Source of the DNA: an uncultured virus (IMG/VR IMGVR_UViG_3300042691_027194)
Taxonomy: Duplodnaviria > Heunggongvirae > Uroviricota > Caudoviricetes
Length of the DNA stretch: 20,000 nt
Virus record (IMG/VR): IMGVR_UViG_3300042691_027194
Direction: 5' to 3' (one strand)
Part shown: piece after piece, positions 2,342 to 18,831 of the stretch
Numbering within the stretch: position 1 is the stretch's first letter
Layout of the letters: every line of letters begins with the position of its first letter
The notes under the pieces: generated by a model
Database searches by the model: none
Seen by the model: only the letters and a program-made list of their open reading frames with translations
Told to the model about the DNA's origin: nothing
Program-made: the position numbers and the translations under genes

Positions 2342-4804
2342 ATGGCAGAAAGAATTGTATCAGCTGGGGTATTTACGAATGAAGTAGATCAGTCGTTTTT
2401 ACCTAGAGCAATCGGTCAAATCGGTGCTGCAATTGTTGGACCAACAGTAAAAGGTCCTGCATTAGTACCGACACAAATTTCATCTTTCTCAGAATTTCAA
2501 CAATTGTTCGGATCATATACAGATGATTCATATGTACCTTTCACAGTTGAAGAATATCTAAGAAACGGAAATTCAATGACTGTAACTCGTCTTTTATATG
2601 AAGATGGTTACGGATTAAGAAACGGTGCATTAGCCGTTATCGCAAAATCAGCATCAGTGCAAGTAGTAACACACTTGTTGCACCCAACCCAACCAGTAAC
2701 ATATGTTGATTCCACAACAAATGTATTTGCTGATTCCGTTATTAACAGCGGCCCATCAGGTAGTTTTGTTATTAATGTGTCTGGATCATATGGTATTACA
2801 TTGGTACCAGGATTTAGTTCATTCTTAACTGCAACCGGATCAGCAATTTCAGCATCGATTGATTCAAGCAAAAATAACTATGTAACCAAGATATTTGGTA
2901 ATTCTCCAAAATCTTTGGATTATCCGGTTTATGTGCAATATGAAAATCAAAATGCAACAAGCTTGTTTAATAATCTAGGTGCAGTTACTGTTGAATTAGG
3001 TTTAATAAATAATTACTATTTCTTGAATGATTATTCAACAGCAGGAACACCGTGGATTACATCGCAAAAAATTGGTAGCACTGTTAAGAACTTGTTCAAG
3101 TTCCATACATTGAGTCATGGTACAGCAGTTAACTATGAAGTTAAAGTCGGTATTCGCGACATTAAAACTGCAGCAGAAGTATCAGATCCAAACGGATATG
3201 GTTCATTCACAGTAGAAGTTCGTCGTGTTAATACATCAAACATTCCAACATCTCCATATGCATCTACTGATACTGATCAGACACCGGATATCGTTGAAAC
3301 ATATTTAAATTGTAATCTAGATCCAGATTCCCAAAACTATATTGCAAGAAAAATTGGTAATCGTTATCAAACAGTAACTGATGCTGGTAATATTCTTGTT
3401 AATGGTGATTATCCAAATCTTTCAAGCTATATTCGTATCGAAGTGACAGATGGTGTTGCAAATAAAACCAATGAACGAACTTTGATTCCATTTGGATTCC
3501 GTGCACCTAATGCACCTATGCCATTAGTATCTGGTTCATTGAATTTATCGGCTGTGTCTTATAACACATCACAAGTAGTATCAAGTAACTTTAGTTCAAA
3601 CAACTATTTAGGATTTGATTTTACTGCAACAAACAACTTGAACTATTTAGCACCATTACCATCATCGGGTTCAAACACAGGTAGCAACGCAGATTTCTAT
3701 CTAGGTAATGTCACACAAGATGCACAAGCAGCATTCCCGTCATTATCTGCTCCATATACTGGATCTTTAGAAACTGCATTGACAACTGGTACAACTTACT
3801 TCACATCGAATGTAGCTAGCACAACCAGAAAGTTCATGGTACCATTCCAAGGTGGATTTGATGGAGCTCGTCCAAACTTACCTAAATATTCTGGAGGTAA
3901 TATTGCGTCTACAAACACATTTGGGTTTGATTGTAGCACATCTACATCCACAGGAACAAAAGCATATAACAAAGCATTCACATTGTTATCAAACACAGAT
4001 TACTATGACATAAACATGTTATTGACTCCAGGTATCTTGCAAAGCAAACATAGCGCTGTAACAACATTGGCAAGAAACTTGGTAACATCTCGTCAAGATA
4101 CATTCTATGTGATGGATTCAAATGCATTGTCGGATAGTATTTCCACAGTTGTTAGTGATGTTACTACACTTGATAACAATTACACAGCAACATATTGGCC
4201 ATGGGTTCGTATTGTGAATCCAGCAAAAAATGTTCCATTATGGGTTCCACCAAGTGTTGTAGTGCCAGGAGCATTGTCATTCAATGATACAGTGGCGGCA
4301 CCATGGTATGCACCTGCAGGATTGAATCGAGGCGGATTAACATCAGTTTCTGATACATATCAAACTCTTTCACAAGCAGATCGTAATACATTGTATGATG
4401 CTCGTATTAACCCTATTGCCAACTTCCCTAACGATGGAATAGTAATTTGGGGGCAAAAGACATTGCAGGCTCGACCAAGTGCATTAGACCGCGTCAATGT
4501 GCGTCGTTTACTTATCACGGTTAAGAAGTTTATTGCTTCTGCAACACGTTACCTAGTATTCGAGCAAAACACGTCTCAGACGCGTGACAGATTCTTATCA
4601 ATTGTTAATCCATACCTAGAGCAAGTGCGCGCACAGCAAGGTTTATCTGCATTCCGTGTAGTAATGGATTCAACAAATAACACTCCAGATTTGATTGACC
4701 GAAACATCCTTTACGGACAAATTTTCCTTCAGCCAACTCGCACAGCAGAATTTATTATTCTTGATTTCAATATTCAACCAACGGGAGCAGCATTCCCTGA
4801 ATAG
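2342..4804 (+). CDS. Contractile tail sheath protein (T4 gp18-like), 820 aa
   Basis: N-terminal S(A/P)GVFTNEVD...AAIVGPTVKGP and C-terminal WYAPAGLNRG, INPIANFPNDGIVIWGQKTL, ALDRVNVRRLL and IFLQPTRTAEFIILDF are typical sheath motifs. Confidence 0.95.
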   Translation: MAERIVSAGVFTNEVDQSFLPRAIGQIGAAIVGPTVKGPALVPTQISSFSEFQQLFGSYTDDSYVPFTVEEYLRNGNSMTVTRLLYEDGYGLRNGALAVIAKSASVQVVTHLLHPTQPVTYVDSTTNVFADSVINSGPSGSFVINVSGSYGITLVPGFSSFLTATGSAISASIDSSKNNYVTKIFGNSPKSLDYPVYVQYENQNATSLFNNLGAVTVELGLINNYYFLNDYSTAGTPWITSQKIGSTVKNLFKFHTLSHGTAVNYEVKVGIRDIKTAAEVSDPNGYGSFTVEVRRVNTSNIPTSPYASTDTDQTPDIVETYLNCNLDPDSQNYIARKIGNRYQTVTDAGNILVNGDYPNLSSYIRIEVTDGVANKTNERTLIPFGFRAPNAPMPLVSGSLNLSAVSYNTSQVVSSNFSSNNYLGFDFTATNNLNYLAPLPSSGSNTGSNADFYLGNVTQDAQAAFPSLSAPYTGSLETALTTGTTYFTSNVASTTRKFMVPFQGGFDGARPNLPKYSGGNIASTNTFGFDCSTSTSTGTKAYNKAFTLLSNTDYYDINMLLTPGILQSKHSAVTTLARNLVTSRQDTFYVMDSNALSDSISTVVSDVTTLDNNYTATYWPWVRIVNPAKNVPLWVPPSVVVPGALSFNDTVAAPWYAPAGLNRGGLTSVSDTYQTLSQADRNTLYDARINPIANFPNDGIVIWGQKTLQARPSALDRVNVRRLLITVKKFIASATRYLVFEQNTSQTRDRFLSIVNPYLEQVRAQQGLSAFRVVMDSTNNTPDLIDRNILYGQIFLQPTRTAEFIILDFNIQPTGAAFPE

Positions 4805-4894: not shown

Positions 4895-5425
4895 ATGGCA
4901 CTACAAGATCAAGTGAATAATAATCTAACGGATTATGCTGGCGACCAACCGGATAATTTTTATTACAATGCATATTCTTGGGAACCAAAAAAAGCGCATC
5001 AATTTATTATGTCAGTAGATGGCATACCTGCATATTTAATTAAAGCATCATCAAAACCATCTGTAGCAAACGGTGAAATCACATTGGATCATATCAATGT
5101 TCAGCGTTACGTTAAAGGTAAAACGGTTTGGAACACAATTTCAGTGACATTGTATGATGCAATTGTTCCGTCGGGAGCACAAGCAGTAATGGAATGGGTA
5201 CGCTTACACCACGAATCTGCAACAGGACGCGACGGATATTCATCATACTACAAAAAAGAAGTTCGATTAAAATCATTGTCGCCATTAGGTGAAGTGATTG
5301 AAGAATGGACATTGAATGGTACATACATCGTTGATGCAAACTTTGGTTCATTGGATTGGTCAACAGAAGATGTAGTTAACATTGAATTGACTCTTCGCTA
5401 CGATTGGGCAAGATTAGAATTCTAA
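4895..5425 (+). CDS. Tail tube protein (T4 gp19-like), 176 aa
   Basis: Follows the sheath; carries EPKKAHQF..., YVKGKTVWNTISVTLYD, VMEWV, EEWTLNG, FGSLDWS and IELTLRYDW, the gp19-family pattern. Confidence 0.92.
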   Translation: MALQDQVNNNLTDYAGDQPDNFYYNAYSWEPKKAHQFIMSVDGIPAYLIKASSKPSVANGEITLDHINVQRYVKGKTVWNTISVTLYDAIVPSGAQAVMEWVRLHHESATGRDGYSSYYKKEVRLKSLSPLGEVIEEWTLNGTYIVDANFGSLDWSTEDVVNIELTLRYDWARLEF

Positions 5426-5511: not shown

Positions 5512-6288
5512 ATGTCACAACTTACAAATCGAATTGACAAACAAAACATCATCAATATTGCTAAACAGCAATTTGAATCTGAACAAAGAAAATCTATTCC
5601 AACTGAGTTGGTAAGATTACCATCACAAGGAAAATTGTATGCTACTAGTAGCCCTCTTCGAAGCGGGGTGTTAGAAATGCGTTACATGACTGCATATGAT
5701 GAAGATATTCTAACTAATATGTCTTATGCCCGAGAAGGTGTAATATTGGATCGTTTATTAGAAAGTATTATTGTAACACCAGATGTCAACATTGATGAAA
5801 TTGCACAATGCGATCGCGATGCACTTATCATACAATCCAGAATAATGTCATATGGTCCAGAATATCCTGTAATCATAACTGACCCTACAAGTAAAACACA
5901 ATTAGAACGTACGGTTGATTTGCGTAAATTAAAACATAAACCATTTGATTTAGAGTCAGATGAAAACGGGGAGTTTACATACATTGTTAATGATTCGGTT
6001 ACACTTAAATTTAAGTTTTTATCGAATGCACAAATAAAAAGTATATCACCAGAACACACAATTTCTGATATATTAACAATGATGATACAACAAGTTAATG
6101 ATACCAGAAAATCAGCAGATATTACACAGTATATTAAATATTCATTCTTAGCAGTAGATTCACGCAAATTTCGAGGCTTTGTTGAAGAAAATACTCCAGC
6201 TGTAGATTTACTTGTAGAATTCGAAGGTGAAAAAGGGAGCACCTTCAGTTCAGTGTTTCAAATTGGATCAGACCTTCTTTGGGTTTAA
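5512..6288 (+). CDS. T4 gp26-like baseplate hub / tail assembly chaperone, 258 aa
   Basis: Motifs VRLPSQGKLY, LEMRYMTAYDEDIL, DRDALIIQSRIMSYG and DSRKFRGFV resemble gp26-family proteins; located between tube and tape measure. Confidence 0.7.
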   Translation: MSQLTNRIDKQNIINIAKQQFESEQRKSIPTELVRLPSQGKLYATSSPLRSGVLEMRYMTAYDEDILTNMSYAREGVILDRLLESIIVTPDVNIDEIAQCDRDALIIQSRIMSYGPEYPVIITDPTSKTQLERTVDLRKLKHKPFDLESDENGEFTYIVNDSVTLKFKFLSNAQIKSISPEHTISDILTMMIQQVNDTRKSADITQYIKYSFLAVDSRKFRGFVEENTPAVDLLVEFEGEKGSTFSSVFQIGSDLLWV

Positions 6289-6517: not shown

Positions 6518-8506
6518 ATGATAGATAACACTAAACATATTATAGCTCGATTAAAACTTCAGCCCCGCTATGGAGCAACCCCAAAGAAAGTTTCTGATAT
6601 TCCAGCTGATGCTGCAGATGCTCTAGGAGAATTTGATACTGCATTTACTCGGATGACAACATCGGGTTTAAGTTTAACAAGTGTATTAAGCGATGTATAT
6701 GATTCATTAAATAATTTACAAACAGGTACTGTTGCAGCTGTTACCGGAGTACAAAAATTAATAGGTGTATATCAGCAATTTTCTAAAATTATAACAGATC
6801 AAACTGATCAGGTAACAAAATTATTTCAGAGAAACAATGAATTAGGAAAATCATTTGGATTATCCACAAAAGCCGCTCAAAGATATGGATTTCAACTAGA
6901 TCAAATTGCCGGAAGTTTAGAGTACGGTCGTGCCAATACAGAACAGTATATTAAAAGCCTTAAAGGATTACTTGGAGTACAGGCACTAAATATTAAAAAT
7001 GACGGAAAATTTGGTACTAGTTTACTAAAAACCCAACGATACCTGACTGATATTATTGGTATATCTGAAGAAGCCGCTGAAGAAATGCGTTATTATAATG
7101 CACAAGCAGCCGGCGGAACAGACAATAAGGGCAAGGGCATCGAAACTAGATTAAACCAAGAACGCGAATCTGCAAAATTAATTGGTACGCAATTAGGTTT
7201 AACCATGGACATGAATGAGCAAACAACTCTTCAAAGAGAAATCATGGAAGAAATTGGAGGGTTGGGTGCAGAAGTACAAATGCAATACGGTCGATATCCT
7301 GCAACCTTAGGTCTCGCAGTAATGAAAGCTAAACAGTTAGGTGTCTCAATGGCCCAACTAAATAAAACAGGTGAAACATTATTAAGCATTGAATCAAGTG
7401 TAGGGGATGAATTAGAATATCAATTATTATCCGGTAAACGTTTAGTGGATGAAGTATCTGGTAAAAGTTTAACCAACATGTATCGAGAAGCTGCATTACA
7501 AGGAGATGCAAATAAGCAAGCTGATGTAATGAACACTATTTTAGATACCCAGGGTGATACTATTAAAGATAACATGTTAGCTCGTAAACAACTTGCTAAA
7601 ACATTGGGGCTTGAAGAAGAGACATTGGCACGTATGCTTCAGAAGAGAAAATTGCTGTCAGATATTGGAGCAAAATCACTGTTTGGCAAAACCGGAGCAG
7701 ACTTAAAAACAGAATTAGAAAAATTACAAAAACAAGGCGAAGTTTCTACAACCCAAATCGATGAAATCATGAAAGCTGATGACACACGGGATGTACAAAC
7801 AAGAATGGCAGAAGCATTAGAGTCAATTCAAACTCGAGGTATTGTAGCACAGTTCCCAGATTCAAAAGGATTTACCGATGCATTTCAAGGAGTCTCTGAT
7901 AGTTTAGAGAACACATTGAACACATTTAAAACGGCAATGCTTAAAGGCCCAGACGCAGCCGGTGTTGGAGGTGGCTATTTTAAAGTTGTTGAAACCATGA
8001 AAGAAGCTGTTGGAACAATGTCGACATTCAGAACAACCGTTAACGGATTAGGTAGCGTAATCACTACAATGACTGAACAAATTCCAATCTGGGGTAACAA
8101 ATTAGCCGGTTTAGGTACTACCATAACAGACGCATTAGCAACAGGCCTGGGTACTAATTTAACAGACATGACTATTGAATCAGCTGAAACTGTAACTGTC
8201 CCAGCAGCCGGTGGAACGGGTGCAAATGACGCAATCATAATGAATGATGGTCTTATAAGATTTAACCCACGTGATAAATTTACACAGGTAAATGACGGTA
8301 CCATGATTGCCGGCACTAATGTGGATGGTAACCGTCGTTTAGCACGGCAATTATCCGGTGGAGGTGGAATTAGTGATAATCAAATTAGTCGATTAGCTGC
8401 AGCGATCGCATCCACACTTAAAGAAACATTACCAACCATTAAAATGTCAGTTATGTCCGATCCATTATACGCAGCAAACAAATTAAATCGAGGGAGATAT
8501 AGCTAA
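6518..8506 (+). CDS. Putative tape measure protein, 662 aa
   Basis: Long A/G/L/Q/K-rich helical protein right after the chaperone pair; includes LLSIESSVGDELEYQLLSGK and RKQLAKTLGLEEETLARM segments. Confidence 0.75.
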   Translation: MIDNTKHIIARLKLQPRYGATPKKVSDIPADAADALGEFDTAFTRMTTSGLSLTSVLSDVYDSLNNLQTGTVAAVTGVQKLIGVYQQFSKIITDQTDQVTKLFQRNNELGKSFGLSTKAAQRYGFQLDQIAGSLEYGRANTEQYIKSLKGLLGVQALNIKNDGKFGTSLLKTQRYLTDIIGISEEAAEEMRYYNAQAAGGTDNKGKGIETRLNQERESAKLIGTQLGLTMDMNEQTTLQREIMEEIGGLGAEVQMQYGRYPATLGLAVMKAKQLGVSMAQLNKTGETLLSIESSVGDELEYQLLSGKRLVDEVSGKSLTNMYREAALQGDANKQADVMNTILDTQGDTIKDNMLARKQLAKTLGLEEETLARMLQKRKLLSDIGAKSLFGKTGADLKTELEKLQKQGEVSTTQIDEIMKADDTRDVQTRMAEALESIQTRGIVAQFPDSKGFTDAFQGVSDSLENTLNTFKTAMLKGPDAAGVGGGYFKVVETMKEAVGTMSTFRTTVNGLGSVITTMTEQIPIWGNKLAGLGTTITDALATGLGTNLTDMTIESAETVTVPAAGGTGANDAIIMNDGLIRFNPRDKFTQVNDGTMIAGTNVDGNRRLARQLSGGGGISDNQISRLAAAIASTLKETLPTIKMSVMSDPLYAANKLNRGRYS

Positions 8507-13215: not shown

Positions 13216-14538
13216 ATGGTACTGGATCATGTAGAAGAAATTGACGCGTTATTACAATGTGTGGCAGATAAACGCACCCTAGTAGTACCTATTTTTTCTA
13301 GTCCAGCATTGCACCCTACTCAGAATCCAGTAATTGCTTTATATGTTTATACCGAAGATGATGTAGAACGTATTGTGCCATTCCGACATACTGAACAACT
13401 AAGGGGCTTTCCTGAACATCTGCCGAGGTTTCTTGCATTGCAGAATATCTTTGTTCATGATAAAAAGGCCTGGCTTCAAATCGGAGGAAACGCTGCCGTA
13501 TGGGATGTAAAAACTTTGTGGTGGTACACTTACGGCGAAGCATATGATGAGTCTTATTATCCTACCGCGGCACATACATTTTATTGGCGCCGACATTCGT
13601 CATTGGCACAAGTAAATGCAGTAGTGCCATTGCAACAACATTTAGCAATGTGTCAGAAAATTCGACATTATGCCTGGCCAATGTGTATGAACGCAAAGTT
13701 AACGGATTCGTATTTACAATTCAATGCAACATATCCAGAAACATTTGCTGCAATTGAATCTGCAGGGTTGTCAGTAACCGACACGTTCAGAATGCCAGAT
13801 TTAATAACACAGAACAAAGTGTACTCAAGTTACAATTATCATACTGTAACAGGACGACCTAGCAATGCATATCGAGGATTTAATTTTGCTGCAATGAACA
13901 AAGAAGATGGTACCCGCGATGCATTTTGTAGTCGATTTGATAATGGTGCTTTGGTAGAAATGGACTTTGATGCATACCACGTTAGATTAATAGCCCGATT
14001 AATTGGATATGCATTGCCTGCGGGATCTGTGCATGAATACTTTGGGCGATTTTATTTTAGCACGACAGAATTGACTGAGGAACAATATGAACAAAGCAAG
14101 CAGATAACTTTTCGATTGTTGTATGGAGGTATTGATACTGAGTTTTTATCTATACCATTCTTTCAGCAAGTAAACACGTTTGTGTATGATTTGTGGAGAC
14201 AATGGAAAGCTAAAGGACGTATAAAAACACCCATACTGCAAAGACCAATAACATCAGACACAGTGAAAAACATGACAGCAAACAAGCTGTTTAATTATTA
14301 TTTGCAAGCCGTTGAAACTGAGGTATCGGTGCAAAAGTTACGGCAATGTCAAACACTGCTAGAAGGACATGAAACCTGCATGGTATTGTATACTTATGAT
14401 TCCGTGTTGTTCGATGTTCCCACTGCAGAAGCACAACACATAATACCTGCAATCAAGCACGTATTAGAACAAGGCAATTTCCCGGTAAAAACAAAAGCCG
14501 GACATATTTATAGTAAAATGAAAACTATCACGTTATGA
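13216..14538 (+). CDS. polA: Compact, divergent family A DNA polymerase-like protein, 440 aa
   Basis: T-x-TGR-x-S (HTVTGRPSN), motif A-like VEMDFDAYHVRL, motif B-like SKQITFRLLYGG, FNYYLQA and motif C-like LYTYDSVLFD, in PolA order. Confidence 0.8.
   Translation: MVLDHVEEIDALLQCVADKRTLVVPIFSSPALHPTQNPVIALYVYTEDDVERIVPFRHTEQLRGFPEHLPRFLALQNIFVHDKKAWLQIGGNAAVWDVKTLWWYTYGEAYDESYYPTAAHTFYWRRHSSLAQVNAVVPLQQHLAMCQKIRHYAWPMCMNAKLTDSYLQFNATYPETFAAIESAGLSVTDTFRMPDLITQNKVYSSYNYHTVTGRPSNAYRGFNFAAMNKEDGTRDAFCSRFDNGALVEMDFDAYHVRLIARLIGYALPAGSVHEYFGRFYFSTTELTEEQYEQSKQITFRLLYGGIDTEFLSIPFFQQVNTFVYDLWRQWKAKGRIKTPILQRPITSDTVKNMTANKLFNYYLQAVETEVSVQKLRQCQTLLEGHETCMVLYTYDSVLFDVPTAEAQHIIPAIKHVLEQGNFPVKTKAGHIYSKMKTITL
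14504..14512 (+). promoter_or_regulatory. Putative late promoter ATATTTATA inside the 3' end of the polymerase gene
   Basis: Perfect motif 22 nt before ATG 14535, matching the spacing at the intergenic copies. Confidence 0.5.
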
Positions 14539-15779
14539 ACATTGATTTAATTTTAACAGAATGGTGTTATCGATTACCGAAAGGTTATCCTACTAATGCT
14601 AAGGATTATGAAATACTATATCATGTTCTTTTAGAAGTAGCCAATATATCAGCCGATGACGCACGCCAAATTGTTGAGCGAGCACAAGGTTCTAACAAAC
14701 AAGTTATTGCAGAAGCCATACAATTTGATTCTATTGAAAATAAAATGTTGGAAGCTGCAGTTGTTCGAGCAGGTAAAATTGATGAATTTCGAGAATTTTT
14801 AGGATTATTGCCTACAGAAGCAAATGATATTACTTTAAAGTTTTTAAATAATTTGCGTTATGATCAATGTATGCAATTTGCATCATTATTATATTCTCAA
14901 AACGGCGTTTCTGAAGAAGCATTGAATACTATAGACTTTAGAAATGGATTAAGCCATGATTTATTCAAGCTTGAACCAAAAGGATTAGGAAAAGGTGAAA
15001 TTTTATTAGCTACTATAATTAATACTTCACAAATTAATGGTGGTACTACATCTTTTGATATGACAGCAAATGGTCAATCTTATGAAATAAAAGATTATAC
15101 CGGAGGAAAAGGCAACGCAAAATCAATCAGATTAGGAACTAAAGGCAGTGTTACTCGATTTAAATTTTGGGATGAAATTGTAACCACCCTGAAACGATTA
15201 GATCAGCTAAGAGGCACAATGGAAAATCCAAAATTTGATTTCCATAAATATTTTAATGAAGAATTACTAAGTTCAATTGCATATTTAGATGACCGTCGTG
15301 CTTTTATTTTAGCAGGTAACTTGAACATGAAAGACAAACAGTTTTTAATGCAGTTTTATCGAGAAGCAAACGCATTAAATTCAGACATACAAGGTTATAC
15401 CAATGTCATTCTACGAGGACCAAATGCAACACCAATTGAAATGTCAATTGAACCATTAACTAAAACACCCGATGGTAATATTGTAATAAAACCAATTGGC
15501 GACGGCAGTCAAGATATAACATATATCAATGCAGAATTGCGACGTTTAAAATACGTACGCGTCCCAGAAGCATTGGAAACAGATTTGCAAGAAGCAGTTG
15601 ATTCTATCGTAGGCAATGATTTACAATTCATTGTGTTTAGAAAAGACAGAATACGAGTTACTAGAGATTTTCGATATGTTGTGATAGATGCAGGTAAAAT
15701 ACGAATAATTGAAAAGGCTATTGGCGCTGATAAAATTGACTTAAGTGACGTCGACATAAATGAGGAAAATGAATGGTAA
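14535..15779 (+). CDS. Hypothetical protein with PD-(D/E)xK nuclease-like motif, 414 aa
   Basis: GLGKGE155ILL...SFD175MTANGQSYE184IK186D arrangement; ATGA overlap with the polymerase stop. Confidence 0.6.
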   Translation: MNIDLILTEWCYRLPKGYPTNAKDYEILYHVLLEVANISADDARQIVERAQGSNKQVIAEAIQFDSIENKMLEAAVVRAGKIDEFREFLGLLPTEANDITLKFLNNLRYDQCMQFASLLYSQNGVSEEALNTIDFRNGLSHDLFKLEPKGLGKGEILLATIINTSQINGGTTSFDMTANGQSYEIKDYTGGKGNAKSIRLGTKGSVTRFKFWDEIVTTLKRLDQLRGTMENPKFDFHKYFNEELLSSIAYLDDRRAFILAGNLNMKDKQFLMQFYREANALNSDIQGYTNVILRGPNATPIEMSIEPLTKTPDGNIVIKPIGDGSQDITYINAELRRLKYVRVPEALETDLQEAVDSIVGNDLQFIVFRKDRIRVTRDFRYVVIDAGKIRIIEKAIGADKIDLSDVDINEENEW

Positions 15780-16162
15780 AGACTCAGCTACTTTGCACCT
15801 TTGCGCACCGTACAGATTTAAACATAATCACAGAATACATACAAACAAACTACCAAATTCCGGAACGCAGAATATTTGTGTTTTCCAATGCAGAAGTATC
15901 TGATAACTTGTATTGCACATACAATGCTATTGACTCAGGACGCAGAGGACAAAATACTATTAGCATCCACCGTAAAAAAGAAACAAACACGCTGTACACG
16001 GTAAATGCTTTAAATGAAGTGATTCGAGCAGTGAATAATGGTGTATTAGATAAGACATATCAATTAGATTGGTCAGCATATCAGAATTCATTCATTTTAA
16101 CGGATGATGATGGATATCGTGTTATTAATCTGGTATTTTTCAAGAAATTTTCTTGGCATTGA
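15773..16162 (+). CDS. Hypothetical phage protein, 129 aa
   Basis: Overlapping ORF with TQLLCTF...YCTYN...ISIHRKKETNTLYTVNALN; function not recognised. Confidence 0.75.
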   Translation: MVKTQLLCTFAHRTDLNIITEYIQTNYQIPERRIFVFSNAEVSDNLYCTYNAIDSGRRGQNTISIHRKKETNTLYTVNALNEVIRAVNNGVLDKTYQLDWSAYQNSFILTDDDGYRVINLVFFKKFSWH

Positions 16163-16170
16163 TATTTATA
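16162..16170 (+). promoter_or_regulatory. Putative late promoter ATATTTATA
   Basis: Overlaps the TGA of the previous gene; upstream of AGGA and ATG 16189. Confidence 0.6.
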
Positions 16171-16188
16171 TAAGTAATAGGAATAACT

Positions 16189-16593
16189 ATGTTAAAATTA
16201 AAACATTTATTAAACGAAGACGAATATCAAACCCCATTTCAACGAGGTGAAACAGATGGGTTAGATGCCGAAGCAGATCAAAAAATACAAGATAGTTTTC
16301 TAACTAAACTAGAACAAAACTATTCTAGAATAAAACGAGCTCGTATTGATATGGCTGAGTTTAAAAATGATGTGATGGATTTGTTATCGATCTATAAAGA
16401 TAAAACGCCCGGAAGTGCGACTACCATGGATTTTATAGATGCATTTTTAGAATTATATCCATATTCAAAAACATATAGCGGATGGCAAGGAACTTATCGA
16501 GATGTAAGAAATAATCTTAATCGTATGTTGCAACACGCACATTCAATCCAAGCCGGAGATACCAGCAATTACGGATACCGTTTTTCTAAATAA
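16189..16593 (+). CDS. Hypothetical protein with leader-like N-terminus (MLKLKHLLNE), 134 aa
   Basis: ORF track entry with promoter motif and SD-like AGGA upstream. Confidence 0.75.
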   Translation: MLKLKHLLNEDEYQTPFQRGETDGLDAEADQKIQDSFLTKLEQNYSRIKRARIDMAEFKNDVMDLLSIYKDKTPGSATTMDFIDAFLELYPYSKTYSGWQGTYRDVRNNLNRMLQHAHSIQAGDTSNYGYRFSK

Positions 16594-16605
16594 GTAAAGT
16601 AAATT

Positions 16606-16671
16606 ATGAAAAAACTAGAAAATATACTAGCAGAAAATATGCGTCGCTTCGGTACCAAGAATCTACACGAA
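16606..16671 (+). repeat. Dispersed 66-nt repeat, copy 1 (shared N-terminal leader)
   Basis: 59/66 nt identical to 17456-17521. Confidence 0.95.
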
Positions 16672-17448
16672 GCCGAAAACAACCCATCAGATACAACAAC
16701 CCAAGATAATTCGATTAATCCATTTCTAGTAAAAGTTGCAATGTTATTCAAAACATTTAAAACTTATTTTTCTAAACCGGAATATGTGTGGTTGCGTGAA
16801 TTCAACATTAACATGGCTGATCGAGGAGATTGGGAAAAGAAACAAGATGCTGAACATAATATACAGGCATTATTTATCGAGCCAGCATTTCATTTAGATA
16901 ATTCAGCAGGATATCAACGACAATGCATTGTCGATATTAACGGCAATGTGCAAGTTAAAACTATTACTGACACTGACACCAACATCTATAGGGGCAAATT
17001 AGATCCAAATCTATCATCAGGTACGATTTATAATACAAATAACGCTGGAGCACAAAAATTTTCAGTGAAGGATATATTAGTCAATCGAATGCAATTTAAA
17101 GATCAATCAATGAGTACCATTTCTACACAAAAAGCAATGGAAATGGCTGATAAGTTTAAGAAATCATTTGAAACCCCAGGAAACTTTCCTGATTTTAGTA
17201 CCAATGTTCCATTATTATGGGGACTAATCACACAAATAAAAACAACCAAAGATTTAATCACAGTCAATGAAGCATTTTATTCAAAATACAAAAAAAGTGT
17301 GATGTGGTGGATTAAAGAAGAAGGCCAGATGGTTGACTTATGGAATCATGCGTTTGCTAAAGGTATGATTACAACTACACAATATATCAAATCGCGACAG
17401 AATGAAGAACAACAGTATGCAGCATTAAAGAATATTAAACTAAGTTAA
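16606..17448 (+). CDS. Hypothetical protein with shared 22-aa leader and possible annexin-like C-terminal repeat, 280 aa
   Basis: Begins MKKLENILAENMRRFGTKNLHE; residues ~178-240 resemble an annexin repeat. Confidence 0.75.
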   Translation: MKKLENILAENMRRFGTKNLHEAENNPSDTTTQDNSINPFLVKVAMLFKTFKTYFSKPEYVWLREFNINMADRGDWEKKQDAEHNIQALFIEPAFHLDNSAGYQRQCIVDINGNVQVKTITDTDTNIYRGKLDPNLSSGTIYNTNNAGAQKFSVKDILVNRMQFKDQSMSTISTQKAMEMADKFKKSFETPGNFPDFSTNVPLLWGLITQIKTTKDLITVNEAFYSKYKKSVMWWIKEEGQMVDLWNHAFAKGMITTTQYIKSRQNEEQQYAALKNIKLS

Positions 17449-17455
17449 GATACCT

Positions 17456-17521
17456 ATGAAAAAACTAGAAAACATCCTAGCAGAAAATATGCGTCGATTT
17501 GGTACTAAGAATCTGCGCGAA
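17456..17521 (+). repeat. Dispersed 66-nt repeat, copy 2 (shared N-terminal leader)
   Basis: 59/66 nt identical to 16606-16671. Confidence 0.95.
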
Positions 17522-17959
17522 GTTGATTTAAATGACTTAGAAAATAAATTAGGATTTGATAGTGGAGCTAACCGCGATCCTAGAACAGGTAACTTGCGAG
17601 TAGATCCTAACAACTTTAAACTTCACATTAACCGTGCTGATTATGATACTAATATTGCTGGTATTGTTAGTTTGACATTTCAAGGTTCCACTCCGGACAC
17701 AAAAGATACATTTCGAGACATCATCAATGACATCAAACAAGATGTTGCCAGTCAAAATGATCCAACTGGTGCATATGATCAAACACGCTTAGTGTCTGAC
17801 ATTGAATTTGATTGTGATTTGAAAGTGGGTTCTGACACAATTAATTTTACAGTAGTATTTGAAGAAGACGGTGATTTAAAAACCGTGGATATTCAGGATG
17901 AAGCATTAGCACAAAAACATGGTATAACTACCGAAACAATATACGATTTTTTATTTTAA
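17456..17959 (+). CDS. Acidic hypothetical protein with shared 22-aa leader, 167 aa
   Basis: Begins MKKLENILAENMRRFGTKNLRE; the remainder is D-rich and looks unrelated to 16606..17448. Confidence 0.75.
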   Translation: MKKLENILAENMRRFGTKNLREVDLNDLENKLGFDSGANRDPRTGNLRVDPNNFKLHINRADYDTNIAGIVSLTFQGSTPDTKDTFRDIINDIKQDVASQNDPTGAYDQTRLVSDIEFDCDLKVGSDTINFTVVFEEDGDLKTVDIQDEALAQKHGITTETIYDFLF

Positions 17960-17977
17960 AAAAATTTAACTAATTAC

Positions 17978-18008
17978 TTTGAATTAACGTTTTAATTACT
18001 TATATTGT
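17978..18008 (+). promoter_or_regulatory. Putative early/host-type promoter TTTG-N19-TATATTGT for SSB-RecA
   Basis: TTTG 17978-17981 and TATATTGT 18001-18008; same spacing as the sites at 13181 and 1971. Confidence 0.5.
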
Positions 18009-18054
18009 AATTATATTTTTATATTTTATTAACTAATTAACAAAGGAAAGACTT

Positions 18055-18831
18055 ATGGCACTTAACTTAGATGCAATTAAGGCGAAACTAAATCAGTTGA
18101 ACAAATCTGATGACAAAAAACAAAATTTGTGGAAACCTGAAGCAGGTAAAACTAGAATCCGAATCGTACCTTATGTACATCGCAAAGACAATCCGTTCTT
18201 GGAATTGTATTTTCACTACGATATCGGTAAGCGTTCAATGCTATCTCCAATCACTTTCGGAAACGCAGATCCAATTGTTGAATTTTCTGACAAGCTCAAG
18301 AAAACAGGCGACAAAGATGAATGGATCATGGGTCGTAAAATCGAGCCTAAAATGAGAACTTATGTTCCTGTTATCGTGCGAGGAAAAGAGTCAGAAGGAG
18401 TTAAGTTTTGGGGCTTTGGAAAACAAATCTACACTGAACTTCTTTCTATCATCTCAGATCCAGATTATGGTGACATTACGGATTTGATGAATGGTCGTGA
18501 TATCGATGTAGAATTCACACCAGCAGAAGGTGCTGCATTTCCTAAGACAGCAATTCGTGTTAAGCCAAACACTCAACCTGCAACTGAAGACAAAGCAATT
18601 GCAGAGAAAATCATGAATCAACCGCAAATCACGGATATCTTTCCTGAGCCAACTTATGAAGAATTAGAACAAGCATTAACAGAATGGATGAATCCAGAAA
18701 ATGCAGATTCTGATGTAGCTTCAGATGACGAAGAAGAAACACCAGCAGTTGCACCAGCTAAATCAGCTTCGAAGCCTACGGCGACAAAAGTAGATGATGT
18801 TTCGTCTGCATTCAATGATCTTTTCAATTAA
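18055..18831 (+). CDS. Single-stranded DNA-binding protein (T4 gp32-like), 258 aa
   Basis: LWKPEAGKTRIRIVPY, PFLELYFHY, VKFWGFGKQIY and DITDLMNGRDIDVE motifs, an acidic tail ending AFNDLFN, adjacency to RecA, and SD-like AAAGGA. Confidence 0.85.
   Translation: MALNLDAIKAKLNQLNKSDDKKQNLWKPEAGKTRIRIVPYVHRKDNPFLELYFHYDIGKRSMLSPITFGNADPIVEFSDKLKKTGDKDEWIMGRKIEPKMRTYVPVIVRGKESEGVKFWGFGKQIYTELLSIISDPDYGDITDLMNGRDIDVEFTPAEGAAFPKTAIRVKPNTQPATEDKAIAEKIMNQPQITDIFPEPTYEELEQALTEWMNPENADSDVASDDEEETPAVAPAKSASKPTATKVDDVSSAFNDLFN

Follow-up and report, generated by a model that had tools for sequence, protein, structure and literature searches.

The stretch of DNA considered here, the window, covers 20 kb of a 24.8-kb IMG/VR fragment (record IMGVR_UViG_3300042691_027194) from an uncultured T4-like myovirus; the fragment is estimated to be approximately 15% complete. 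Our subject is a cassette of three short plus-strand genes, the open reading frames (ORFs) A, B and C, which lie between a polymerase gene and the gene for gp32, separated from each other by gaps of 12 and 7 nucleotides, and the leader peptides with which their products begin. The features are as follows.

16162–16175, plus strand (8-mer at 16162–16169): promoter-like motif ATATTTAT(A t T A A A), 27 nucleotides before ORF A
16189–16593, plus strand: ORF A, 134 residues; small acidic body with isoelectric point (pI) 5.3, no family; candidate cargo 1
16189–16218, plus strand: short leader of ORF A, MLKLKHLLNE, 10 residues ending L-N-E
16606–17448, plus strand: ORF B, 280 residues; body pI 8.4, without family or fold match; candidate cargo 2
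16606–16671, plus strand: long leader of ORF B, MKKLENILAENMRRFGTKNLHE, 22 residues with L-x-E sites ending at residues 10 and 22
17456–17959, plus strand: ORF C, 167 residues; acidic body, pI 4.2, net charge -16; candidate cargo 3
17456–17521, plus strand: long leader of ORF C, MKKLENILAENMRRFGTKNLRE

ORFs B and C have the common start MKKLENILAENMRRFGTKNL(H/R)E. A codon-by-codon comparison of the first 66 nucleotides shows that 59 are identical. Six of the seven differences, in codons 6, 7, 14, 15, 17 and 20, are synonymous and the sole nonsynonymous change is H21R. Past codon 22 the residues differ at seven of the next eight codons, and the similarity ends at L-x-E. Once the leaders are removed the bodies are unrelated as judged by BLASTP, with best E values of 0.10 for B against C and 2.8 for A against B; a 33% match of B to C over residues 1–123 (30.5 bits) is accounted for by the leader. 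The DNA upstream of ORF B is also unrelated to that upstream of ORF C. An earlier note on this DNA, made from the letters alone, had claimed that two adjacent genes with unrelated bodies share a 22-residue start, that the peptide is what is conserved and that identity stops directly after L-x-E. All three observations hold.

The leader is widespread. Residues 1–40 of ORF B, used as a query at E ≤ 1, identified 156 candidates of which 113 were kept, proteins of 154–490 residues in which the leader comes first and the remainder is dissimilar. Together with leader ORFs from 35 viral loci, and with three AANM-variant proteins dropped, these form a set of 153 proteins, and single-linkage BLASTP clustering of their 127 unique bodies gives 38 clusters in this first sample. 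ORF B forms a cluster by itself, and ORF C is one of the 42 members of the largest. A leader profile of 30 positions, built from 19 leaders and compared with 1.84 billion representatives of 50%-identity clusters, reached E ≤ 0.001 with 1197 of them and E ≤ 1e-10 with 27. Since hundreds of other proteins carry this leader too, its sharing by ORFs B and C is far more than chance would give. The match is N-terminal, beginning at residues 1–5 in 144 of the 150 matches listed, and the core starts 6–11 residues past the called start in 215 of 225 leaders. A degenerate DNA pattern for ENMRRFGTKNL had no match in 185,579 bacterial and archaeal species, each represented by one genome, and 117 matching stretches in IMG/VR.

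Is the conserved unit the peptide or the nucleic acid? The 59 of 66 bases common to the window copies might suggest that the DNA or RNA itself has a role, in recombination, in translation or in regulation, with the peptide as a by-product, and T-even phages are said to swap the genes at their internal-protein loci by way of conserved flanking sequence. Such an origin is extremely unlikely. There are 55 DNA versions among 56 canonical leader genes, all encoding the same 16-residue core, with leucine, arginine and glycine each specified by four to six codons and the synonymous codons well mixed, and this argues that selection acts on the leader peptide and not on the DNA. The unrelated sequences upstream of B and C point the same way.

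The 24.8-kb record to which the window belongs has no head genes. Further comparisons were made with a near-identical complete relative carrying an identical cassette (G001; 169,328 bp, 100% complete by CheckV, 223 genes called). It has five long-type leaders. Two are those of the cassette and three, which are more divergent (MKNTLAENLLRFGAKNLDQ, MKHSLQENMRRFGTKNLKE and MKLEKLLAENMLRFGVKNLNN), form a second cluster at 85–89 kb. The genes of this second cluster (85268–89470; 334, 102 and 506 residues) are interleaved with two opposite-strand genes for secreted CAP/SCP-like proteins (PF00188, 43.1 bits), with signal peptides that end in ...FSQ, a style that we assume to be associated with Bacteroidota hosts. 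The leaders themselves do not resemble Sec, Tat or lipoprotein signals. As read from the sequence without a predictor, they are amphipathic and charged (MKKLENILAENMRRFGTKNL, net +2) and free of any hydrophobic run, in contrast to neighbouring genes of the relative that begin MKKLFLVFSVAVSSFAFSQ. AlphaFold2 models the leader as a separate helix, at residues 2–13 in B and 2–14 in C, followed by a low-confidence stretch that holds the putative cut site.

The first ten residues of the long leader follow the pattern M-K/I-K/R-L-x-x-I/L-L-x-E and lead into a second, nearly invariant module, N-M-R-R-F-G-T-K-N-L-x-E. The shorter start of ORF A, which the earlier note had described as similar, is one example of a widespread form. 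The pattern M-x-x-h-x-x-h-h-x-E in exact register opens 11 of the 223 genes of the complete relative, compared with 0.42 expected from internal positions (84 in 44,229), and is seen at six of 963 internal methionines. Four further genes fit in a relaxed register or from an internal methionine. Typical starts are MIRLKQLLKE, MIRLKSLLFE, MIKLKSILNE, MIRLKHILAE and MIRLKDLLKE, in addition to MLKLKHLLNE of ORF A. The primase start in the relative, MKNIKLLQLLE, was treated as a chance match and set aside. One other gene in the window is a weak candidate for a further tagged gene:

14535–15779, plus strand: ORF of 414 residues starting MNIDLILTE, with ATATTTAT at 14504–14511

It fits the short-leader pattern in relaxed register only and is without a family match.

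The two forms can be exchanged on the same body. An ORF B orthologue of 96% identity begins MIKLKNILTENLRE, which is the long leader without NMRRFGTK, and three more distant homologues (45–49% identity) begin MIKLKNLFNE or MIKLKNLLKE. The body of ORF A is homologous to that of a long-leader protein (P0209, E 5e-19). A short-leader protein of the complete relative matches the long-leader protein P0023 such that LNE/GYAWER aligns with LAE/AYAWER, where a slash marks the boundary. In all, three bodies were found with either leader form and with their L-x-E sites aligned. Because the forms interchange in this way, we consider all three cassette genes to be tagged and the long leader to be the short one (MKKLENILAE) plus a module that ends in a second L-x-E. 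That homologous bodies carry different leader forms also makes recombination of cargo genes through leader DNA plausible.

The bodies offer little that is recognisable. ORFs A, B and C have no match in PHROGs or Pfam, and tblastn with B and C found nothing in 50,697 named phage records. The AlphaFold2 model of ORF C has a mean predicted local distance difference test (pLDDT) score of 74.3, with residues 22–37 mostly below 50 and residues 50–167 mostly above 80, and depicts the body as a compact alpha/beta domain following a low-confidence linker. The model of ORF B is weak (pLDDT 63). When the two models were compared with the PDB by Foldseek, nothing matched at E ≤ 0.001 and template modelling scores were at most 0.28, a result to be read with the weakness of the B model in mind. 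The ESM Atlas provided sub-threshold leads only for ORF B and nothing for ORF C, so that family, fold and ESM Atlas searches assign no recognisable function to the bodies of the cassette. Among 147 leader proteins scanned just one, a LysM protein, reached the Pfam cut-off. The bodies have a median length of 138 residues (range 32–361); 152 of 233 have a pI below 6 and 63 a pI above 8.

Two short-leader proteins of the complete relative deserve mention. A protein of 589 residues (94545–96314) contains a lysozyme domain of the phage tail type (PF18013, 115.5 bits) and is plausible as an ejected enzyme, since a wall-degrading enzyme is the kind of protein that phages eject. A protein of 128 residues (97669–98088) matches the DRAT ADP-ribosyltransferase family below the Pfam cut-off (23.2 against 25 bits) and recalls T4 Alt, which we take only as a lead. 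Separately, many proteins that differ in other respects (P0030, P0049, P0137, P0160, L016 and L022 among them) have D-x-D-Q-N-N-N-G-Y-P-D immediately behind the leader, a motif that looks, in our estimation, like a thrombospondin type-3 calcium-binding loop. Another recurrent post-leader motif, LENKLGFDSGANRDP(R/K)TGN, is present in ORF C.

Such common motifs after the leader (DQNNNGYPD, LENKLGFDSGANRDP) in several bodies, together with the size of some body clusters (42 and 15 members), might be taken to mean that the proteins are one old paralogous family in which only the N-terminus is still recognisable and the bodies have drifted apart. This is very unlikely in view of 38 clusters unrelated by BLASTP and a more than tenfold spread of body lengths (32–361 residues), a lysozyme with a short leader and a LysM protein with a long one, and the occurrence of the same body with different leader forms. 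ORFs B and C in particular, for which full-length paralogy was checked, have unrelated bodies and predicted folds that differ, albeit with a weak model for B.

The boundary between leader and body is strict. In 225 leaders matched by a regular expression P1 is glutamate in every case, P3 is leucine in 223 and isoleucine in two, and P2 varies freely. A further 18 leaders missed by the expression show N-(L/I)-x-E by eye, giving 243 inspected in all, a set enriched for profile-like leaders. Within the cassette, the leader of ORF A has LNE, and those of ORFs B and C have LAE followed further on by LHE or LRE.

A protease suited to this motif is encoded by the complete relative. A gp21-like gene had been suggested as a thing to look for, and one of T4 gp21 type is present (PF03420, 110.9 bits; E 6.7e-21 to the T4 gp21 chain 5jbl). 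It is located in a T4-like head module with the terminase, portal, scaffold and gp23-like capsid protein. In the alignment to 5jbl the protease has histidine and serine where the crystallised chain has alanine; the two residues would presumably fit the gp21 catalytic pair. PF03420 occurs in eight of 11 leader-bearing records including all three that are at least 90% complete, and the three records without it are fragments estimated to be 46%, 17% and 13% complete.

The presumed substrates in the head module carry the same motif. The scaffold gene of the complete relative is

46178–47179, minus strand: scaffold gene, its product having a long acidic low-complexity middle

Homologues were collected as ORFs from 77 of 80 loci with a filter that required the tail motif, giving 61 unique sequences of 56–100% identity. 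Ten alignment columns keep (L/I)-x-E, eight of them in 61 of 61 sequences, one in 59 and one in 47, and here too P2 varies (ILNE, VLSE, IITE, VLGE). The capsid protein keeps TGLLE/G and QLLE/NQ in all 40 N-terminal variants listed from 72 loci, and the second of these sites is within about three residues of the position aligned to the N-terminus of mature T4 gp23. Between the protease and scaffold genes there is an 81-residue ORF (47375–47620), conserved in relatives, with a weak match to ribosomal protein S21 (phrog_21469, E 6.6e-4).

The capsid-targeting sequence (CTS) of T4 is carried by the internal proteins IPI, IPII and IPIII, with a counterpart in the Alt propeptide, and is removed by the prohead protease gp21. 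According to PMC9026906, T4 propeptides of 10–19 residues are cleaved after glutamate, the first ten residues of IPIII suffice for packaging, and within the CTS targeting depends on residues 4 and 7 and processing on residues 8 and 10. Most features of the T4 CTS that can be examined by computation are present in the leader. As in T4, the putative tag begins at residue 1 on proteins that are otherwise unrelated, and (L/I)-x-E closes it. The short form has ten residues, and its conserved residues, L4, I/L7, L8 and E10, fall at the positions that are functional in T4. T4 IPIII and IPII start MKTYQEFIAE/A, which has M1, K2, A9 and E10 in common with MKKLENILAE; IPI has a 19-residue leader ending in ITE. 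The second, downstream L-x-E of the long form is paralleled in IPII, where RVGAGKLE/A places KLE at residue 19. The complete relative has gp21-, gp22- and gp23-type genes. We therefore consider that the shared peptide is probably a new, two-part version of the capsid-targeting propeptides known from T4. There are differences. The invariant NMRRFGTKN module of the 22-residue form has no T4 counterpart, and where T4 has a handful of tagged genes there are about 15 per genome and 1197 clusters in the uncultured clade described here.

A further difference from T4 concerns the scaffold. The pattern [KIL][KR]L..[IL]L, examined post hoc, is present at only 14 of the 51,588 positions in the proteome of the complete relative. 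In ten cases, nine of them leaders and the other a signal peptide, it starts at residue 2; three more cases are internal, and the remaining one is formed by the last residues of the scaffold, RWKKLAGLL. This tail is invariant in the 61 scaffolds, a number to be read with the fact that the filter itself required part of the tail. A conserved scaffold L-x-E/G site is found 15 residues from the end, ahead of RWKKLAGLL, so that the tail would be clipped at maturation. This copy of the C-terminal tail sets the leader apart from the T4 CTS; a likeness to the scaffold N-terminus is common to both systems. The consensus in this clade, MAKSDLLKEA, resembles the short leader MIRLKDLLKE, and T4 gp22, the product of gene 22, starts MLKEQLIAE/A, near T4's own MKTYQEFIAE/A. 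The tag may therefore pose as a scaffold end, and the idea may hold in T4 itself. A complex prediction for the leader (alignment A1) with the scaffold (alignment A4, 61 rows) scored 0.00, below the mark and without controls, and is counted neither way. The literature examined, with older T4 work outside the search, does not state a mechanism of scaffold mimicry.

All the evidence for cleavage fits equally well with a propeptide that is removed by the prohead protease and is not an address, serving to hold a harmful protein in check until the head matures, or merely as a cleavage handle while another feature brings about packaging. Propeptides with redundant cleavage sites are on record in phiKZ-like phages (PMC9026906). 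We regard this as improbable because the bodies have no other common feature able to act as an address, the resemblance to the scaffold ends points to binding and, in the same source, ten N-terminal residues alone are enough for packaging in T4.

The leader can also be compared with the propeptides of head and ejection proteins in phiKZ-like phages (201phi2-1, phiKZ, SPN3US), which have a diverged gp21 homologue. Many of their head proteins are cut after glutamate at a three-residue motif (PMC9026906), as the leader is proposed to be. They differ in that the motif is S/A-x-E and not L/I-x-E, and the propeptides are long and protein-specific with no single portable short tag. The CTS literature found covers T4, P1 and phiKZ-like phages only, the older T-even internal-protein papers being outside the search; nor were the leader strings found in the literature searched, which likewise left out older subscription-journal work on T-even internal-protein loci. 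Encapsulin cargo-loading peptides are short, portable peptides that send unrelated cargo inside an HK97-fold shell, and by that description they are like the leader in its proposed role. They are usually C-terminal, bind the shell protein directly and stay uncut, without a protease or scaffold, and in these respects they are unlike it.

The genomic setting of the cassette was considered next to that of recognisable genes in the window:

2342–4804: sheath gene
4895–5425: tube gene
5512–6288: gene for a T4-type baseplate protein
13216–14538: family A polymerase fragment
18055–18831: gp32 gene
from 18842: UvsX gene

The polymerase gene has only partial coverage of the Pfam model, at 27.7 bits against a cut-off of 34.3, and may be split or highly diverged.

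The motif ATATTTAT is found 15–36 nucleotides before the genes for the sheath (at 2308), tube (4865) and baseplate hub (5481), the genes at 6518 and 14535 and a gene near 1661, as well as ahead of ORF A, which agrees with the claim that the trio follows the same motif as the tail genes. The window has seven plus-strand sites, and eight on both strands compared with 3.3 expected. No separate copy precedes ORF B or ORF C, which come directly after A; the copy at 16162–16175 is likely the start of an A-B-C transcript. In the complete relative ATATTTAT lies within 60 nucleotides upstream of 41 of 223 genes, with 2.1 expected, and has the extended consensus ATATTTATAtTAAA (37 sites). Tail genes (sheath, tube and baseplate hub) are among the 41, as are those for the portal, the head-tail adaptor and a virion structural protein; none of the 41 can be recognised as a replication gene. 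Across many contigs the motif is placed 22–41 nucleotides before the ATG of 66 of 102 distinct leader genes, so the association of leader and motif on which the earlier note had remarked extends well beyond the window. As ATATTTAT is shared with tail and portal genes, expression of the cassette may be late.

Other promoter searches gave less. Neither sigma-70 promoters nor terminators were above the shuffled expectation in 15700–18100, and a gp55-like late sigma factor was not established, a 235-residue candidate being without a family match. A second upstream motif, CTTATATT / TTATATTA (17985–18030 in the window), precedes gp32 and approximately 17–21 other genes of the relative. The gene set is largely distinct from that of ATATTTAT, with some overlapping sites, and the motif may mark another promoter class. 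Genes for GroEL, a vWA/CobT-like protein and a MoxR-like ATPase (126391–131448), and for a Dps-like protein (94142–94516), all stand behind the structural-gene promoter motif in the relative.

A number of observations weigh against the leader being a capsid-targeting propeptide. The cassette sits among replication genes (the polymerase fragment, gp32 and UvsX), as the earlier note had recognised, and outside the head module. The long leader, though it contains a ten-residue unit ending in L-A-E, exceeds by three residues the published 10–19 range. The module NMRRFGTKN is more conserved than a simple spacer would need, and yet a near-identical ORF B orthologue does without it. Identity to the T4 CTS amounts to four of ten residues in a peptide too short for statistics; the likeness could be convergent and, with so few residues identical, homology cannot be claimed. 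Two of the three divergent leaders in the second cluster end in NLDQ and NLNN, not in L-x-E. The motif (L/I)-x-E is short and would arise by chance about once per 100 residues. The co-occurrence of leader and gp21 is not independent evidence because the records tested all come from one broad T4-like clade. The bodies are mostly acidic, in contrast to the basic internal proteins of T4. With respect to the promoter, ATATTTAT is also present ahead of the GroEL, Dps-like, ATPase and glycosyltransferase genes of the complete relative, the exact 8-mer is absent upstream of the capsid, scaffold and protease genes in that genome, and the sequence differs from the T4 late promoter, which is TATAAATA.

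Some of these points would suit a leader that is a protein-binding helix for a target other than the prohead, for example a host factor or the replication or transcription complex, on proteins that are never packaged and in which L-x-E is part of the binding motif. A position between the polymerase and gp32/UvsX genes is in keeping with this, as are small, mostly acidic bodies of no known family, typical of phage anti-host proteins, the conservation of NMRRFGTKN far beyond the needs of a spacer, and the two divergent leaders without a terminal glutamate. We nevertheless judge it unlikely. Invariant leucine and glutamate with a free residue between them are the signature of a protease site, and the same motif is conserved at ten sites of the scaffold, the tail of which is copied by the leader helix. 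The promoter motif is that of the tail and portal genes and not that of gp32. Furthermore, the ORF B orthologue that is 96% identical lacks NMRRFGTK entirely.

The earlier note had proposed a portable tag, ending in (I/L)-x-E, that loads interchangeable effectors into the head for injection. The core of this proposal is supported by what was computed, namely the tag on unrelated bodies and its spread, the boundary motif, the gp21-type protease, the scaffold and capsid sites, the match to the T4 CTS, the promoter association and the swapping of leaders. The proposal stands in part, since we infer the binding, packaging, cleavage and ejection or injection of these proteins, their location in the virion and their role as effectors or cargo.

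A capsid-targeting propeptide of this kind could work as follows. The three genes would be cotranscribed from a promoter of the type used for structural genes and would specify three cargo proteins. The first ten residues of the leader would form an amphipathic helix that copies the last residues of the scaffold, W-K-K-L-A-G-L-L, and binds wherever scaffold ends bind in the prohead core, and the attached protein would thereby be built into the head. In the long form this helix brings with it the second module, N-M-R-R-F-G-T-K-N-L-x-E. Once activated, the gp21-type protease would cut after the glutamate of (L/I)-x-E at residue 22, and possibly at residue 10 too, setting the body free within the capsid, from which it would exit together with the DNA when the next cell is infected.

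A more specific version is a two-module address used across uncultured T4-like phages of lakes, in which module 1 is the scaffold-helix mimic and module 2 (NMRRFGTKNL) a separable signal that is removed in a second cut. We put this forward tentatively, as a possibility on the doubtful side. Module 2 might sort the cargo to a distinct place, set the copy number or time the release. Were the two-module address correct, scaffold mimicry would explain how any T4-type CTS works, and the leader profile alone would read out the injected repertoire, of more than 1000 families, in phages that cannot be cultured.

Proteins carried in the head and injected are a phage's first weapons against host defences, and they are almost unrecognisable from their sequences. 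Those of T4 include a restriction-enzyme inhibitor (PMC3012670). If the leader is indeed a head address, one short profile marks more than 1000 candidate injected proteins in uncultured freshwater phages, nearly all of them without a known family, and provides a concrete list for screens of anti-defence function. The likeness of the tag to the scaffold ends offers a testable answer to how a CTS is recognised. The tag could also be used to load chosen proteins when such phages are engineered, a purpose for which the T4 CTS is already employed.

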